Shown piece after piece: positions 38,420-43,603 of a stretch of 64,000 bases of DNA (its first letter is position 1; each line of letters begins with the position of its first letter). The notes beneath the pieces were generated by a model. It did no database searches, was not told where the DNA came from, and was given only the letters and a program-made list of their open reading frames with translations. The position numbers and the translations under genes are program-made. This DNA comes from an uncultured Myxococcales bacterium (GTDB lineage: Bacteria; Myxococcota_A; UBA9042; CAIXZC01): assembly GCA_964626565.1 (NCBI GenBank), contig CAZVFX010000002.1, positions 4,822 through 68,821 on the forward strand, read 5' to 3'.

Positions 38420-39438
38420 GGCGGTCGACCCTCATCGGAATCGCGGTGTTGGCCGCGCTCACCGCGCTGGCCTTTCTGCTGTATTTGTGTGCGGGCACCA
38501 GGTTTGTCTCACCGCTGGATGTACTGGGCGGGGGGCTCGAAGGGGATGATGCCCTGCTGGTGTACGGTTTTCGCCTCAAAAGAGCGCTGTTGGCAGTGAT
38601 CGTGGGCTCCAGCCTCGCTATTTCCGGGGCTGCATTCCAGGCGTTGCTCCGCAACCCCCTGGCCGACCCGTTTGTGGTGGGGGTTTCCGGCGGCGCGGCC
38701 ATCGGCGGCACCGTGGTGATGGTTACCTTCTCCGCGGTGCTCTCCGCGCTACCTGTGATCTTCCAGTCCATGGCAGTCTTTGTGGGCGCATTCGCAGGCT
38801 CGGTGCTGGTCGCGGTCATGCTCTACTCCCTGTCTACGTCCCGGGGGATGCTGGTCACCAACAGCCTGCTGTTGATGGGGGTTGTGTTCAACTTCTTCGC
38901 CTCGGCCGTGGTGCTGTTCCTCAAAACCATCCTCCATGGCACCAAGTTGCAAGAGGTGCTGTTCTGGCTCATGGGTTCCCTGGCCGTCGAGACGCTCCCC
39001 TGGGGAGTGATCTACATCTCCGTTGTTGCTGTCGGAGTCGCAATGACGGCCCTGCTGTTCCTGGGCAGGCACGTGAACCTCATCTCCGTTGGAGAGGAAT
39101 TCGGCTATGGCAGCGGCGCCAATCCTGAACGCATAAAGAAGCTGTTGTTCCTCTTTGCCTCGGTGCTGGTGGCCGCGGCCGTGTCCATCGCCGGGTTCAT
39201 CGGTTTTGTCGGGCTCATCGTGCCCCACGTGGTGCGCCTGCTGTTCGGTGCTGACCACCGCAGCTTGTTTCCGCTGTCCGCACTGCTGGGAGCGGCGTTT
39301 TTGCTGCTGGCGGATCTGCTTAGCCGCCTCTCCTTCCCCCTGTTCGGCAACCAGCTTCCCGTGGGAGTGCTCACCGCCTTCATCGGCGGACCTGCGTTCA
39401 TCTGGCTGCTGGCGAGGGCGCAAAGGAGGGCGTCATGA
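38416..39438 (+). CDS. btuC: ABC transporter permease, FecCD family (BtuC-like).
   Basis: The ATG overlaps the upstream stop (ATGA) with an AGGAGGG RBS. Nine or more TM helices and the FecCD signature region. Confidence 0.7.
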   Translation: MRRSTLIGIAVLAALTALAFLLYLCAGTRFVSPLDVLGGGLEGDDALLVYGFRLKRALLAVIVGSSLAISGAAFQALLRNPLADPFVVGVSGGAAIGGTVVMVTFSAVLSALPVIFQSMAVFVGAFAGSVLVAVMLYSLSTSRGMLVTNSLLLMGVVFNFFASAVVLFLKTILHGTKLQEVLFWLMGSLAVETLPWGVIYISVVAVGVAMTALLFLGRHVNLISVGEEFGYGSGANPERIKKLLFLFASVLVAAAVSIAGFIGFVGLIVPHVVRLLFGADHRSLFPLSALLGAAFLLLADLLSRLSFPLFGNQLPVGVLTAFIGGPAFIWLLARAQRRAS

Positions 39439-40217
39439 CCGGACCCTCCCTGGCGTGCCGCAACGTCTCCTTCGCCTTTGGCGACAGGGAAGTGCTGTCG
39501 GACATCTCCTTTGCCGCTGATGCCGGTGACTTCGTCGCCGTAATCGGCCCCAACGGCGCAGGAAAATCCACCCTGCTCCGCCTCCTCTCCGGTTTTTTTA
39601 CCTCGCCCAAACAAGGAAGTGGGGTGTGGTGCGGGGGGCGGGAAGTACCCCGGCTGACCGGCCCGGAAAGAGCCGCGGCCGTCGGTTTCCTCCCCCAGTC
39701 GGTGCAGACCTTTTTCCCCTTTACCTGTCTGGAGATGGTGCGCATGGGCAGGTCGGTCCTCTCCCGGGGATTCTCCAACCGGGAGGAAGACGCCCGGGCC
39801 GCAGAAGCGCTGGAGCAGGTAGGTATGGCCGGGTTCGCCAACCGACCCTATCCCAACATTTCGGGAGGAGAGCAGAAGCTGGCGCTGCTGGCCAAGATGT
39901 TTGCCCAGGACCCCCAGGTCCTGCTCCTCGACGAACCGATCGCAGCATTGGACGCGGGCCACGCCTTGCGGGTTATGAAGCTCTTGCGCCAGCGAGCCGA
40001 GTCGGGCAAGACAGTGGTCGCCGTGATGCACGACCTCAACCAGGCCCTGGCCCACTGCAACCGGTTCTTACTCCTCGACCAAGGGGTACAGTTGTTCTAC
40101 GGCACTTCAGCCGAACTTCTCGCCGGCGAACTCCTCCAAAACGCCTACGGCGTCAGTCTCACCACAGTGAGGCATCCTTCCTCCGGCATCCAGTTCCTCC
40201 TGCCGGACCATCAGTAG
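39435..40217 (+). CDS. btuD: ABC transporter ATP-binding protein (BtuD/FecE-like).
   Basis: Walker A GPNGAGKSTLL, signature LSGGEQKLALLAKMF, Walker B LLLDEP. Overlaps the btuC stop. Confidence 0.8.
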   Translation: MTGPSLACRNVSFAFGDREVLSDISFAADAGDFVAVIGPNGAGKSTLLRLLSGFFTSPKQGSGVWCGGREVPRLTGPERAAAVGFLPQSVQTFFPFTCLEMVRMGRSVLSRGFSNREEDARAAEALEQVGMAGFANRPYPNISGGEQKLALLAKMFAQDPQVLLLDEPIAALDAGHALRVMKLLRQRAESGKTVVAVMHDLNQALAHCNRFLLLDQGVQLFYGTSAELLAGELLQNAYGVSLTTVRHPSSGIQFLLPDHQ

Positions 40218-40241
40218 GCGCCCCCGCAGCCTCAGCCTCCC
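40193..40241. repeat. Direct repeat copy 1 (TCCTCCTGCCGGACCATCAGTAGGCGCCCCCGC...CAGCCTCCCAC) spanning the btuD stop codon.
   Basis: 33/33 nt identical, plus additional matching 3' blocks, to 41085-41133. Confidence 0.75.
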
Positions 40242-40396
40242 ACACTCGGCACCAACAGTACCCCGAGAGCGCCTGTCTCGACGTAGTCTTGGCGGAGTCG
40301 GAAGCGAGGGGCCTGCGCTGCGCAGCATCGGCCGGGTCCTGTCATTCTGGACAACGCGAGGTGGATGTTGCATCATGACGGTAGGAGGAGTGAGCC

Positions 40397-40717
40397 ATGG
40401 CCGAAACGCCAGCGACGGCAGCCATCGTACAGCGAGTGCTGGAAGTCTTTCCCAACGCCGAGAGGGTTCTGCTTTTTGGTTCACGGGCAACGGGCAGATT
40501 TGCCCCGGACAGCGACCACGATCTTCTGGTTGTTGCATCGACGGATCTACCTCCGGCCAGGCGGGGTGCGGCGGTTCGTCTGGGACTGAGGGGTTTGCAT
40601 GGCGCGTTTGATGTCCTGGTTGTCACTCCCGAAGAATACGAGCGGCTTGTGCGATGGAAAAGTACCGTCGTGTACAGAGCTTCGCAAGAGGGGACGGTCC
40701 TCCATGAAGCGGCCTGA
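40397..40717 (+). CDS. mntA: Minimal nucleotidyltransferase (MNT) antitoxin of a HepT/MntA-type type VII TA system.
   Basis: LLFGSRATGRFAPDSDHDLLVV (GS...DxD nucleotidyltransferase motif). 106 aa. Overlaps the downstream HEPN gene by 14 nt. Confidence 0.7.
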   Translation: MAETPATAAIVQRVLEVFPNAERVLLFGSRATGRFAPDSDHDLLVVASTDLPPARRGAAVRLGLRGLHGAFDVLVVTPEEYERLVRWKSTVVYRASQEGTVLHEAA

Positions 40718-41108
40718 CGACCCGGAAGTACAAGCATGGCTGGAGAAGGCCCGGGGCGATCTGCGCATGGCGCAACTCGCGACGGGGACCGAATCGCCTC
40801 TTTGGGACCAAGCGTGCTTCCACTCGCAACAAGCGGTGGAGAAATCGCTCAAGGCTCTGCTGGTGGCCGCTGATCTTGATGTTCCCCGCACTCATGACCT
40901 CGTCCTGCTGTTGGATTCTCTGGCGGAGCGATTGCCCGGCCTGGAGCGGTTCGCCGAATCGGTGGCCCTGCTCACCCAATTCGGGGTGACACCGCGATAC
41001 CCGAGCTTCCTGGCGCCAGAAACCGAGGAAGATGCCCGAGCAGCACTTGGCTCAGCCGAAGAACTGATGAAGCGAATCGACGAGCTCCTCCTGCCGGACC
41101 ATCAGTAG
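40704..41108 (+). CDS. hepT: HEPN-domain toxin (HepT-like RNase).
   Basis: From the internal ATG (MKRPDDPEV...). HEPN Rx4-6H motif region PRTHDLVLLLDS. About 134 aa. Confidence 0.65.
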   Translation: MKRPDDPEVQAWLEKARGDLRMAQLATGTESPLWDQACFHSQQAVEKSLKALLVAADLDVPRTHDLVLLLDSLAERLPGLERFAESVALLTQFGVTPRYPSFLAPETEEDARAALGSAEELMKRIDELLLPDHQ

Positions 41109-41133
41109 GCGCCCCCGCCACCCCAGCCTCCCA
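41085..41133. repeat. Direct repeat copy 2 (see 40193-40241).
   Basis: Sequence identity with copy 1. Confidence 0.75.
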
Positions 41134-41207
41134 CGCGGATCGCTTGCGATGCGGGCTTTCTGGCTTTCGCCGCCCACATGTATTAACATTCCCGACAGGA
41201 GGGCGGG

Positions 41208-42407
41208 ATGGATTTTGTGCTGGCCTGCAACTGGGATGAACGGCTGATAGACGTCGCCCGGAAGCACGGCGTGACAGAGTTGTTCGGAAAACTCCACCAC
41301 GATCTGGTGGGCGGTGGACGGGCCAGTTTTCTGCTCCCGAAGTTGACTCGAAAGGAAGCGGAAAGATATATTAGCAATGTCCACGATGCGGGCATCCAGT
41401 TCAACTATCTCTTGAACGGCACCTGCCTCGGCAATCGGGAGCTCACCCGGGCCGGTCAGAAGGAACTGGACAGCCTGGTCGGTTGGGCCTGGGACGCGGG
41501 CGTTCGCTGGTTCACCGTCTCCATCCCCTACCTCGCCCGCAAAATCAAGCGCCGCTACCCCGACGCGCACATTGTGGTCTCCATGATGGCCGGCGTCGAG
41601 TCGGTTGAAACCGCGAAATACTGGGAAGAAGCCGGCGCCGAAGTCCTCATCCTCTTCGATTCCAAAGATTTCAACCTGCTCCGAGCGCTGAAAAAGCATA
41701 CGGGGCTGAAGCTGGAAGTCGCGGGCAACCTGTCCTGCATGAACAGGTGCCACCAGACCTTCTACCACGGCAACGTCGCCTCCCATGGCTCCAACGCCTC
41801 GGGCACGGGGATGTTCACTCTGCCCGTGTGCGAGACCAGGTGCACCTACATGAAGGTGAAAGAGCCGAGGCGCATCATTGCGGGGCAGTGGGTGAGGCCC
41901 GACGACCTTCACATCTACGACGAGTTGGGTGTCGACCGGTTGAAACTGCTGGACCGCATTTCACCCACGGAGCAGCTCGAGAAGATCCTCACGGCCTATC
42001 GGGAAGGCGTGTACGAGGGCAATCTCGCCGAACTCATCCCCGGCTACCGCCAGGACCGGGTAGACGCCTACCTCAACGCAAGCCGACTCCCCCGCATGGT
42101 GCAGGCGTTTCTGCGCCCCGAGAAATACAATGTGTTCAAGGCGCTGCCATTTGCCCGGCGCAACCGCCAGCCGACCTTTACTATCGACAACCGCGCCCTG
42201 GACGGTTTTCTGGATGGATTCAGCAAGCGCGATTGCCGCAGTCTTTCTTGCGCCGAGTGTGGGTGGTGCGACCGCTACGCGGAAAAGGCGATAAGTTTCG
42301 ACCCCGAGGAGCGAAAGCGATACCTCACTGACGTCGAGAATAATCTCGAAGAGCTTGAAAGCGGCAGCTTCTTCTCGTATCTTCCCGCCAACAGGAAGGA
42401 AGAATGA
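41208..42407 (+). CDS. Putative Fe-S protein, peptidase-U32-like family (UbiU/UbiV/RlhA-like TIM-barrel), paralog A.
   Basis: N-terminal (VLACNWDERLIDVARKHGVTELFGKL) resembles the U32 N-terminus (LxxPxxxxExLxxxxxxGADxVYxG). Two Cx3C motifs (LSCMNRC, VCETRC; compare UbiV CETCC). C-terminal Cx4Cx2Cx2C cluster. 399 aa. Confidence 0.4.
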   Translation: MDFVLACNWDERLIDVARKHGVTELFGKLHHDLVGGGRASFLLPKLTRKEAERYISNVHDAGIQFNYLLNGTCLGNRELTRAGQKELDSLVGWAWDAGVRWFTVSIPYLARKIKRRYPDAHIVVSMMAGVESVETAKYWEEAGAEVLILFDSKDFNLLRALKKHTGLKLEVAGNLSCMNRCHQTFYHGNVASHGSNASGTGMFTLPVCETRCTYMKVKEPRRIIAGQWVRPDDLHIYDELGVDRLKLLDRISPTEQLEKILTAYREGVYEGNLAELIPGYRQDRVDAYLNASRLPRMVQAFLRPEKYNVFKALPFARRNRQPTFTIDNRALDGFLDGFSKRDCRSLSCAECGWCDRYAEKAISFDPEERKRYLTDVENNLEELESGSFFSYLPANRKEE

Positions 42408-43603
42408 AGCTGTCGGCCCCAACCAATTTTGACGATGCGCTAATCGAGCCTCTGGCCGCGGCCGGCGTTCACGAAATCTACGGCAAGCTTACCGCGGACG
42501 CGGTGGGCGGTGGCCGCACATCCCACGTGCTGCCGCCGGTGGACAAGAAACGGCTCAACGAGCACGCAACCCTGGCTCGCAAGGCAGGCATCCAGTTCAA
42601 CTATCTGCTCAACGCCGCGGCCATGGGCGGCATGGAAACCACCGCGGGCGGCTACAAGAGCATTCGCCGGATCCTCGACATGGTGAGTGAACTGGGCCTC
42701 AACTCAATTACCGTGTCCAACCCCCTGCTGCTGCAGATTTCCAAACGCCACAACCCCGGCCTCGAGGTGAAAGTGTCCGCGTTCGCCAACGTGGTCAACG
42801 TGTTCCAAGCCCGCCAGTGGGCGGATATGGGCGCCGACGTCATCACCGCTTCCCCCGTTGCGCTGAACCGGGAGTTGAAGACTCTCGAAGAGATGGCCGG
42901 AACTGTGAACGCGGAAATTCAGGTGATCCTCAACAACAACTGCATTCAGTCGTGTGCTTTCTACAACACCCACGCCAACCTCCACTCCCACTCGTCGCAG
43001 AAAGGGCACTGGTCGAAGGGGTATATGATCGACTACTGCCTGCTCAACTGCAGGACGGCAAGGCTTACTGATCCCGCCCTATATATCCGGGGTGACTGGA
43101 TTCGGCCCGAGGATATGGACCTCTACGAATCGCTGGGCATGGAGTATTTCAAGGTGGTGAACCGCTCCAATCCTACCGACGTAATCATCCGCCGGGTGCA
43201 GGCTTATGCTGCCCGTCGATTCGACGGCAATCTTCTGGAGCTGGTGGAGCACGCGCAGGACCACCGGCAGAAAGGGGCGGAGAGCGCCGGGGCAAAGCTG
43301 CGCATGGCGAGGACGTTTGTGAGACCTACCCTGGTCAATCCCCTGCGGCTGAAAGAGTTCGGCGACCTGGCTTTTCCACTGGAGCCGGTGGTGGAGATAG
43401 ACAACCGGGCGCTGGATGGTTTTATCGATTACTTCAAGGAAAACAGTTGCGCTTCAAAGGGGTGCGACGTGTGCCGCTACTGCGAAGAGACCGCGGCCAA
43501 AGTGATCAAGATAAACGGGGTCGGTCTTGACGAGTACCGCCAGCGCTACAAGCAGGCGATGGATCGCTTCCTGGACGGCTACTATTTCAATTGGACAACC
43601 TGA
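42404..43603 (+). CDS. Putative Fe-S protein, peptidase-U32-like family, paralog B (translationally coupled to paralog A).
   Basis: KLSAPTNFDDALIEPLAAAGVHEIYGK. Cx3C motifs CIQSC and CLLNC. C-terminal CASKGCDVCRYC. 399 aa. Start overlaps the stop of paralog A (ATGA). Confidence 0.4.
   Translation: MKLSAPTNFDDALIEPLAAAGVHEIYGKLTADAVGGGRTSHVLPPVDKKRLNEHATLARKAGIQFNYLLNAAAMGGMETTAGGYKSIRRILDMVSELGLNSITVSNPLLLQISKRHNPGLEVKVSAFANVVNVFQARQWADMGADVITASPVALNRELKTLEEMAGTVNAEIQVILNNNCIQSCAFYNTHANLHSHSSQKGHWSKGYMIDYCLLNCRTARLTDPALYIRGDWIRPEDMDLYESLGMEYFKVVNRSNPTDVIIRRVQAYAARRFDGNLLELVEHAQDHRQKGAESAGAKLRMARTFVRPTLVNPLRLKEFGDLAFPLEPVVEIDNRALDGFIDYFKENSCASKGCDVCRYCEETAAKVIKINGVGLDEYRQRYKQAMDRFLDGYYFNWTT

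Follow-up and report, generated by a model that had tools for sequence, protein, structure and literature searches.

The direct repeat that brackets a small toxin-antitoxin (TA) pair in the 64-kb stretch of DNA analysed here (the window) is probably a later local copy of the 3′ end of a btuD-like gene, which overwrote the last codons of the HEPN gene, and not the footprint of the TA insertion. We favour secondary copying, on sequence comparisons, because btuD tails are invariant, HEPN homologues end differently, a syntenic relative with the same TA pair (locus L022) is free of the repeat, and the first repeat copy lies ~95 nt from the insertion junction.

All of the features described below are on the forward strand. 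The TA pair lies downstream of a btuD-like ABC transporter ATPase (39435..40217; Pfam ABC_tran, 1.5e-26), the last gene of a TonB-receptor/PBP/FecCD/ATPase operon, and upstream of two tandem U32-like genes (41208..43603, that is 41208-42407 and 42404-43603; Pfam Peptidase_U32), as the original prediction had called them. The repeat is 52 nt long. Its copies R1 (40192-40243) and R2 (41083-41134) are identical at 48 of 52 positions (92%), are spaced by 891 nt and were returned by a repeat search as one family with two copies. They contain the identical 33-nt block, with further matching blocks on its 3′ side, that had been noticed earlier; this exact core (TCCTCCTGCCGGACCATCAGTAGGCGCCCCCGC) is located at 40195-40227 and 41086-41118. 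With up to three mismatches allowed it still occurs just twice in the 64-kb window, and 100 shuffles gave 0 matches. Copy one was correctly described as the end of btuD and copy two as the end of the HEPN gene, with both reading frames finishing in LLPDHQ* within the repeat. R1 is composed of the last btuD codons, the stop and 26 nt of native 3′ intergenic DNA. In R2 the patch proper spans ~41090-41134, with microhomology on the left (TCCT/CTCCT) and on the right (CAC/CCCAC).

Comparison of homologues shows btuD to be the donor of the copied tail and the HEPN gene its recipient, since all 7 btuD orthologues end in FLLPDHQ* and none of 19 aligned HEPN homologues ends in LLPDHQ. The orthologues cover 100-65% amino acid identity and include some with a different downstream context, and the columns F254-Q260 are invariant. 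FLLPDHQ* is the native C-terminus of the ATPase. The HEPN tail reads ...ELLLPDHQ* here versus ...ELLSP* in the native form; the three closest homologues (85, 82 and 67% identity), two of which are in unrelated contexts, end in LLSP*, LISP* and LLSP*, encoded by TC(T/A/G) CCC TGA. The chimeric toxin 3′ end that had been proposed therefore stands, with btuD as the donor and L(L/I)SP* as the native ending. The 26 non-coding nucleotides of the repeat tell a similar story. They have homologues after btuD, behind its stop in L104 and beyond an extra stretch of ~100 nt in L022, and none just ahead of U32 in the leader flanks of L022, L104 or L095, where the R2 patch is missing at the corresponding position.

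The TA pair itself is part of a mobile unit of ~745 bp (40343..41087) that is delimited by homology and comprises a promoter, the MNT gene and the HEPN gene up to codon L128/L129. This unit shows ~79-80% nucleotide identity to L024 (583-1327) and L026 (308-1052), where the flanks are unrelated, and ~79% to L022 (3631-4376); in each comparison the homology begins and ends at equal window coordinates. In L024, L026, L029 and L022 the unit stops at its own TGA and carries no R sequence. At its 5′ edge is a promoter-like site, TGGACA-17-CATCAT (40348..40376), which is kept in L022, L024 and L029 and is present in a single copy in the window; the search for such sites found 2 against 0.2 expected. 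The MNT gene, a putative antitoxin (40397..40717), matches Pfam NTP_transf_2 (7e-8) and Polbeta (1e-6) above the cut-offs, and a regular expression locates the GSX10DXD motif at G28-S29-x10-D40-H41-D42. The HEPN gene, a putative toxin with a chimeric C-terminus (40704..41108), matches Pfam HEPN PF05168 (8.9e-27, residues 9-127) and is of the 'HEPN-T' type. Pfam and the ORF coordinates agree with the gene calls made originally, including the 14-nt overlap, and L022, L024 and L029 share the MNT-then-HEPN arrangement.

Type VII HepT/MntA systems, as described in Shewanella oneidensis, Aphanizomenon and Legionella (PMC7641770, PMC11586414, PMC4621449), resemble this module in the upstream MNT gene, the 14-nt overlap and the GSX10DXD motif. 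Likewise, it carries a promoter of its own and turns up in several unrelated contexts, which fits the view of toxin-antitoxin modules as 'mobile two-gene modules' (PMC2701414). However, the HEPN protein belongs to PF05168 'HEPN-T' (PMC3710099) and not to DUF86/HepT: the R-x(4-6)-H motif of DUF86-type HepT is found nowhere in it and NCBIfam gives no HepT match, while the MNT protein scores 27.8 bits against NCBIfam MntA (NF047752), below the equivalog cut-off of 60. Toxicity of the HEPN protein and its neutralisation through AMPylation by MNT are putative. H40 and H64 are invariant in the HEPN alignment; members of PF05168 'HEPN-T' often do not have the canonical H, and an alternative conserved H is possible (PMC3710099). 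The best solved-structure matches are HEPN-T structures (TT1696, 1UFB; 1WOL), which have the QQAxEKxLKA and RYP motifs in common with the window protein. The closest is Thermus thermophilus TT1696 (PDB 1UFB; E = 1.2e-8, residues 10-103). The window protein differs from them by its C-terminal graft from an ABC ATPase gene.

The boundaries of the insertion can be read from relatives. Alignments to L104, to L022 and to the TA unit in unrelated contexts (L024/L026) define the left junction, and together they show the true cassette borders to lie at ~40338/40343 on the left and at the HEPN stop on the right. R1 ends at 40243, ~95-100 nt short of that junction, and R2 starts exactly where the TA homology stops. 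The DNA between R1 and the junction is native: the intergenic sequence 3′ of btuD (40218..40338), outside the inserted cassette, consists of the non-coding part of R1 and a conserved block of ~90 nt that we call C90. Here C90 (40249-40338) is 90% identical to L022 2428-2517; it is also found in L105 and in L104, which has no TA pair, and is absent beside the TA unit in L024/L026. On the right-hand side, R2 is followed by 21 lineage-specific nucleotides (GCGGATCGCTTGCGATGCGGG; 41135..41155) with a small hairpin, ATCGC-TT-GCGAT; lineages differ from one another in this stretch. Homology with all of the sister lineages resumes at the conserved leader, with the ribosome-binding region, that precedes the first U32-like gene (41156..41207), where the BLAST break points fall (L022 4413, L095 469, L104 1135).

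The locus L022 is ~84% identical to the window at the nucleotide level in the flanks. The same MNT/HEPN pair occupies this site in L022, and its HEPN gene has the native end; the order is btuD, C90, further cassettes, MNT, HEPN (ELLSP*), U32. Three small modules stand in a row here, with no direct repeat at the site or between modules. It is the one TA-bearing syntenic relative that was found. In the sister lineage L104 (ERZ24794654 NODE_1003655), which has no TA pair, C90 runs straight into the U32 leader, an apparent empty site of the kind that the original prediction had suggested looking for; this contig stops 22 nt into the leader, so adjacency to U32 is read from a 22-nt, 95% match. Relative to this apparent empty-site allele, comparison supports the TA pair as an insertion. 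Relatives with the repeats and without the TA genes, which were to count against a cassette, did not appear. Because the window, L022 and L024 copies are equidistant (78-79% nucleotide identity), the window lineage and L022 may have acquired the TA pair independently at the same site.

U32 synteny is kept in L022 and L095. The site downstream of the btu operon is variable, as different TA-like inserts are found in different lineages: in sister lineages it is occupied by MNT/HEPN, by a DhiTA-like or a VapC-like pair, by a palindromic element or, probably, by nothing. Further searches returned no TA-less allele from the same strain population among contigs with exact btuD, HEPN or U32 proteins. 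Neither the U32 protein nor a 23-nt btuD-tail pattern had a match among metagenome contigs, in a collection that apparently does not include these samples. Scanning genome contigs with the U32 alignment recovered only distant relatives (≤67% amino acid identity), of which the closest two (L035 and L036) give no empty-site information, as there is no btuD upstream; the U32 relatives L096 and L100 (68% identity) show no btuD synteny either.

The proposed series of events would start with an MNT/HEPN unit of ~750 bp that carried its own promoter and had already settled between the btu operon and U32, in the variable spacer. Roughly 45 nt of the btuD 3′ end (the LPDHQ codons, the stop and 26 nt of 3′ UTR) would then have been copied 891 nt downstream, replacing the last four HEPN codons (...T TCT CCC TGA) and a few bases beyond. 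The ends of the patch carry microhomology, TCCT on the left (btuD TTC-CTC-CTG versus HEPN CTC-CTT) and CAC on the right, and because the patch is bounded in this way the evidence points to illegitimate recombination. Replication could have switched templates twice (short-patch ectopic conversion), or 891 bp could have been duplicated in tandem through microhomology and the second TA copy then deleted; we favour neither route. Both are familiar from FoSTeS/MMBIR-type events, in which microhomology-mediated template switching, or tandem duplication and deletion, produces illegitimate recombination. The window patch is alike in that ~45 nt would come from 891 nt away on the same strand, with microhomologies of 3-5 nt, and replace a shorter native segment. 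It is unusual in that the inferred event fused an in-frame stop and tail onto a toxin gene.

The net change to the HEPN protein is S130L plus a three-residue extension, outside the HEPN domain, and is probably neutral. With L104 and L022 as outgroups, two changes are assigned to R1 and one to R2 since the copying. The mismatches between the copies fall at three clustered positions, and the changes are common to all of the sampled strains; the 33-nt core shows no difference between copies or among strains. Selection or continuing conversion could also account for a perfect core beside three clustered mismatches.

We consider it unlikely that the copied segment has since taken on a role, either because the 33-nt repeat is a built-in recombination substrate that excises the TA segment, or because the btuD segment is a cis-acting signal brought back near U32. 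If it did serve excision, a RecA-dependent or slippage-type R1-R2 deletion would remove the 891 bp of C90 and MNT/HEPN as a unit and leave an intact btuD (LLPDHQ* tail) joined to the U32 leader. The lineage would gain a clean, recurrent way of shedding the TA pair, and possibly of circularising it and passing it on. The excised allele would read ...CATCCAGTTCCTC, one R, and the R2-specific right flank CCACCCCAGCCTCCCACGCGGATCG; the reciprocal circle junction would read HEPN ...GACGAGCTCCTC, R, CAGCCTCAGCCTCCCACACTCGG.

A related possibility, which we regard as quite unlikely, is that the repeat serves as a functional RNA or a regulatory element normally found between btuD and U32, and that its re-creation upstream of U32 was selected because the TA pair had come to lie between this element and U32. 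Candidates would be an anti-SD-like stretch, CUCCUCCUG, pairing with the U32 Shine-Dalgarno CAGGAGGG, or a 3′-end processing signal. In the minimum free energy fold of 41083-41210 the start of R2 does pair with the U32 ribosome-binding site (ensemble frequency 0.39), and the core is perfectly conserved between copies and across all strains. However, the z-score of this fold is only -1.5, with 14 of 200 shuffles doing equally well, and by itself the repeat does not outperform its shuffles (z = +0.5 and +0.7). The anti-SD-like stretch is changed elsewhere (CTA for CTC in L104, CTCTTG in L106), across lineages R is poorly conserved in its non-coding part, and the invariant FLLPDHQ peptide accounts for conservation of its coding part. 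Rfam has no match in 39900-41400, nor in L095, L104 or L105, and there is no terminator-like site at R1 or R2.

The original prediction read the locus as a cassette insertion with duplication of the target; the insertion is supported by L104, and the duplication is not. A version in which a TA circle or transposon-like unit integrated at the btuD 3′ end, site-specifically or by a Campbell-type event, with the repeats as attL/attR or a ~50-bp target duplication, seems to us very improbable. The direct repeats do bracket the TA pair, the site varies between lineages, and both reading frames are intact and terminate within the repeat. The same is seen when elements integrate at the 3′ ends of genes (tRNA/tmRNA-type att), where the repeat likewise contains a gene 3′ end and the upstream gene stays intact. 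But this reading is already contradicted by L022, L104 and L024. Target-site duplications abut the insert on both sides; here the left copy stops short, and the native DNA in the gap is also found in L104. In L022 this site is occupied by the same TA pair, its HEPN end is native and no repeats are present, and the unit elsewhere ends without R. Integration would lead us to expect a TA-less allele of btuD, a single R, GCGGATCGCTTGCG and U32, with C90 as cargo, and a cassette-borne tail would predict HEPN homologues in unrelated contexts that end in ...LLPDHQ* followed by GCGCCCCCGC. As had been stated, no recombinase is adjacent: no integrase or transposase Pfam family occurs among the genes called within ±10 kb.

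Integron cassettes are alike in being small, promoter-proximal, TA-type cargo in a variable, array-like spot, such as the three modules of L022. The unit described here differs in having its own promoter, no attC-like imperfect palindromes, no inverted repeat at the cassette ends and no integrase within ±10 kb, and the modules of L022 are repeat-free. The integron-like or MITE-like mechanisms that had been suggested, and a REP reading, fail because the repeat has no attC or hairpin structure and no further copies across the window, the fetched loci and the viral contigs. Two other candidates were tried and rejected. Had an 891-bp circle integrated by a Campbell-type event, the duplication would span the whole tail and C90 (~145 nt or more), not 52 nt. 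An 8-nt sequence that the R1 flank has in common with the spacer behind HEPN in L022, ACACTCGG, taken as a deletion end point, predicts the junction CCCACACTCGGAAAGCC, versus the actual CCCACGCGGATCGC.

It is hardly credible that the repeat arose in assembly or belongs to a dispersed REP/MITE family: although Logan contigs (k=31) break exactly within the core (L007, L012, L016 and L020), this is expected of a 33-nt repeat at that k, and R1 and R2 stand together, with identical sequence, on single JGI or ENA contigs from at least eight separate samples. The repeat is seen in more than 10 independent assemblies (sources include JGI 3300007510, 3300009128 and 3300013118, SRR8062321/48/51 and the ENA SUTE22 series), so it is not an assembly product; for the same reason of k, Logan contigs cannot display an excised allele. 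The check for other copies that had been proposed found the two in the window (≤3 mismatches), none in viral contigs, and only orthologous positions among 108 fetched loci. Neither plasmid nor phage collections have a BLAST match to 40192-41160, and terminal inverted repeats are absent; in the sequences covered, the repeat is not a ubiquitous REP element.

In summary, we have described an ordinary mutational scar beside an ordinary mobile toxin-antitoxin pair. Tidy direct repeats around a small TA module are not necessarily an insertion footprint, and comparison can tell a later copy bounded by microhomology from the true borders of such a module (here ~40338/40343 and the HEPN stop); otherwise the result is mainly one of annotation hygiene. 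It also documents that a small spot behind a conserved btu-type uptake operon is variable, which fits the picture of TA modules as mobile two-gene units, and the chimeric HEPN tail could mark the lineage of this uncultured marine population.

The direct repeats described in the original prediction near the ends of btuD and of the HEPN (putative toxin) gene are real. A repeat search returned a two-copy family of 52 nt, with an upstream copy, R1 (40192-40243), and a downstream copy, R2 (41083-41134), identical at 48 of 52 positions and spaced 891 nt apart. Its 33-nt core, TCCTCCTGCCGGACCATCAGTAGGCGCCCCCGC, has exactly two matches across the 64 kb of the window even with three mismatches tolerated, and 100 shuffles gave none. 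ORF 39435-40217 (...FLLPDHQ*) has its final codons and stop inside R1, ORF 40704-41108 (...ELLLPDHQ*) inside R2. Logan contigs break within the core, the behaviour expected of a k=31 graph here. In JGI and ENA assemblies of at least eight samples, both copies, with the same mismatches, lie on single contigs, which rules out an assembly artefact. Every sampled strain carries R2.

Which gene owns the shared ending can be judged from homologues. All seven btuD orthologues (100, 88, 85, 84 and three at 65% identity) end in FLLPDHQ*, the last seven alignment columns being invariant, and the 65% group keeps this ending despite a different downstream neighbour, a VapC-like pair. By contrast, LLPDHQ closes none of the 19 aligned HEPN homologues, which bears out the proposed chimeric toxin 3' end. 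The three closest (85, 82 and 67%) end in LLSP*, LISP* and LLSP*, and their 3' DNA reads TC[T/A/G] CCC TGA versus CTG CCG GAC CAT CAG TAG in the window. In alignments, the non-coding 26-nt part of the repeat finds a homologue straight after the btuD stop in L104, a related locus, and behind an extra stretch of ~100 nt in a second, L022; none precedes the U32 leader (the conserved leader and ribosome-binding region before the first U32-like gene, 41156-41207) in L022, L104 or a third locus, L095. Together these observations show that R1 is the original and R2 the copy.

Three independent comparisons agree on the borders of the toxin-antitoxin (TA) insert. The first is with L022 (Logan SRR13694707), which is syntenic and has ~84% nucleotide identity in btuD and U32. 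Here btuD (LLPDHQ*) is followed by the ~100 extra nt, a homologue of the non-coding part of R1 and of a conserved intergenic block (C90, ~90 nt within 40218-40338), a DhiA/DhiT-like pair, two small minus-strand ORFs, the minimal nucleotidyltransferase (MNT, putative antitoxin), HEPN (ELLSP*) and two U32 genes, with no direct repeat at the site. In L104 (btuD 85% amino acid identity) the btuD stop leads through the same native block and GCGGC(GGGCAC)5GGG to GAAAGCCCTTTCTGGCTTTCG, the beginning of the U32 leader, with no TA genes between. This apparent empty site supports the claim that the TA pair is an insertion, but the contig ends only 22 nt into the leader. The hexanucleotide microsatellite (GGGCAC)x5 lies at L104 1098-1130, exactly where the native block meets the leader. 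Thirdly, L024 and L026 carry the MNT/HEPN unit in an unrelated context, as do L023 and L025 in truncated form. The homology of L024 and L026 to the window covers exactly 40343-41087 and nothing else in 64 kb, beginning at a promoter-like TGGACA-17-CATCAT (40348-40376) and stopping exactly at the start of R2. These comparisons set the limits of the inserted unit at ~40343 and the HEPN stop. Native intergenic DNA of ~95-100 nt separates the end of R1 from it, and R2 is a patch that overlies the last four codons of HEPN. The idea that the repeats are cassette boundaries or a duplicated target is contradicted by this distance and by L022, which holds the TA pair without the repeat.

We therefore read the repeats not as cassette borders but as the result of a later copying of the btuD 3' end between short microhomologies. 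The copied patch spans ~41090-41134. Its left edge, TCCT/CTCCT, is common to btuD (TTC CTC CTG) and HEPN (CTC CTT/CTC); its right edge, CAC/CCCAC, is found at the corresponding spacer place in L022, L104 and L095. Some 45 nt were copied on the same strand from 891 nt away, in place of a shorter native segment, and such a copy flanked by 3-5-nt microhomologies carries the signature of illegitimate recombination. The route may have been a double template switch; alternatively, the 891-bp unit may have been duplicated in tandem through microhomology, with the second TA copy then deleted. Both routes fit and are not told apart. Three clustered mismatches (R1 AGCCT, R2 CACCC), polarised against L104 (CGCCC) and L022 (TGCCC), give two changes in R1, yielding a perfect AGCCTCAGCCTC tandem, and one in R2. 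The copy is thus not brand new. The HEPN protein gains S130L and three extra residues outside its Pfam envelope (residues 9-127), a change that is most likely neutral.

Other readings of the repeat fare less well. As an attC-like or structured element it is not supported, since alone it folds with z of +0.5 to +0.7. The larger context (41083-41210) reaches z -1.5, with CUCCUCCUG at the start of R2 pairing with the Shine-Dalgarno CAGGAGGG (~41190s) of the first U32-like gene at a minimum-free-energy ensemble frequency of 0.39. CCUCC is absent from L104, where the CUCCUCCUG stretch of R2 is not kept, and the predicted pairing is suggestive at most. Rfam gave no match in 39900-41400 or in L095, L104 and L105. 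Target-site duplication or att-type integration is contradicted by the insert borders and by the lack of a recombinase within +/-10 kb. A REP or MITE is not supported by the search for further copies: the window has two, viral contigs have none, and other loci show them only at orthologous positions; an integron-like or MITE-like mechanism is accordingly not borne out. The cassette DNA had no match in plasmid and phage collections.

Pfam upholds the MNT-like (40397-40717) and HEPN (PF05168, 40704-41108) assignments, with a 14-nt overlap. Upstream lie a TonB-dependent receptor, a periplasmic binding protein, a FecCD permease and an ABC ATPase; downstream are two U32-like genes (41208-43603). 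The latter are paralogous, 399 aa each with C-terminal Cys-rich motifs, and in 68%-identity relatives the pair adjoins B12-binding radical SAM genes or a methyltransferase, not the btu operon. MNT carries the GSX10DXD motif, and HEPN falls in the classical PF05168 'HEPN-T' group (best solved relative TT1696, 1UFB). The architecture resembles that of the characterised type VII HepT/MntA systems (PMC7641770, PMC11586414), whereas this putative toxin lies outside the DUF86/HepT family. No canonical Rx4-6H was found in the HEPN protein, NCBIfam gave it no HepT match, and MntA scored 27.8 bits, short of the cut-off of 60. Substitution of the motif histidine is common among PF05168 members, for which another conserved histidine may serve instead (PMC3710099); H40 and H64 are invariant in the aligned homologues.

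The spot downstream of the btu-type operon varies between lineages. MNT/HEPN occupies it in the window; in L022 the MNT/HEPN pair comes after a DhiTA-like pair and two small ORFs; L105 has a different gene of lower GC, L106-L108 have a VapC-like pair and L095 has a nested palindromic element of ~400 nt adjoining the U32 leader; L104 probably has nothing there. Such occupants match the known mobility of TA modules as two-gene units (PMC2701414). The TA copies of the window, L022 and L024 lie at equal distances from one another (78-79% nucleotide identity), so vertical inheritance and re-acquisition at this site, both compatible with the data, are inseparable.

Some of these occupants can be described further. 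The extra 1.1 kb of L022 (2396-3562), which separates the native spacer from the MNT promoter, holds the DhiA/DhiT-like (DUF2442/DUF4160) pair, under NCBIfam cut-offs, and the two unannotated minus-strand ORFs (65 and 71 aa); the site is thus a short series of small modules that have no repeats between them. In the more distant relative L106 (7834-8467), as in L107 and L108, btuD (65% amino acid identity) is directly followed on the minus strand by a PIN (VapC-like) gene with a partner of 82 aa. This operon end there bears a TA of another type, with the whole radical-SAM, TonB receptor, PBP, FecCD and btuD block kept. In the sister lineage L095, the palindrome (1-398; arms 2-47/353-398 at 91% and 54-118/280-344 at 82%) lies immediately upstream of the U32 leader, at the variable junction where the window has its TA module. 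It has no Rfam match, is absent from the window and may be a MITE or structured-RNA element.

ENA sample ERZ24794654 is the source of both the TA-less btuD allele (L104) and the MNT/HEPN unit of L023, which has ~80% nucleotide identity to the window and sits at another locus, next to genes for an ABC transporter. If these two contigs, which are not linked, came from one organism, the MNT/HEPN module would have relocated within the clade. The site itself is best described as a TA insert of known type plus a small rearrangement scar.
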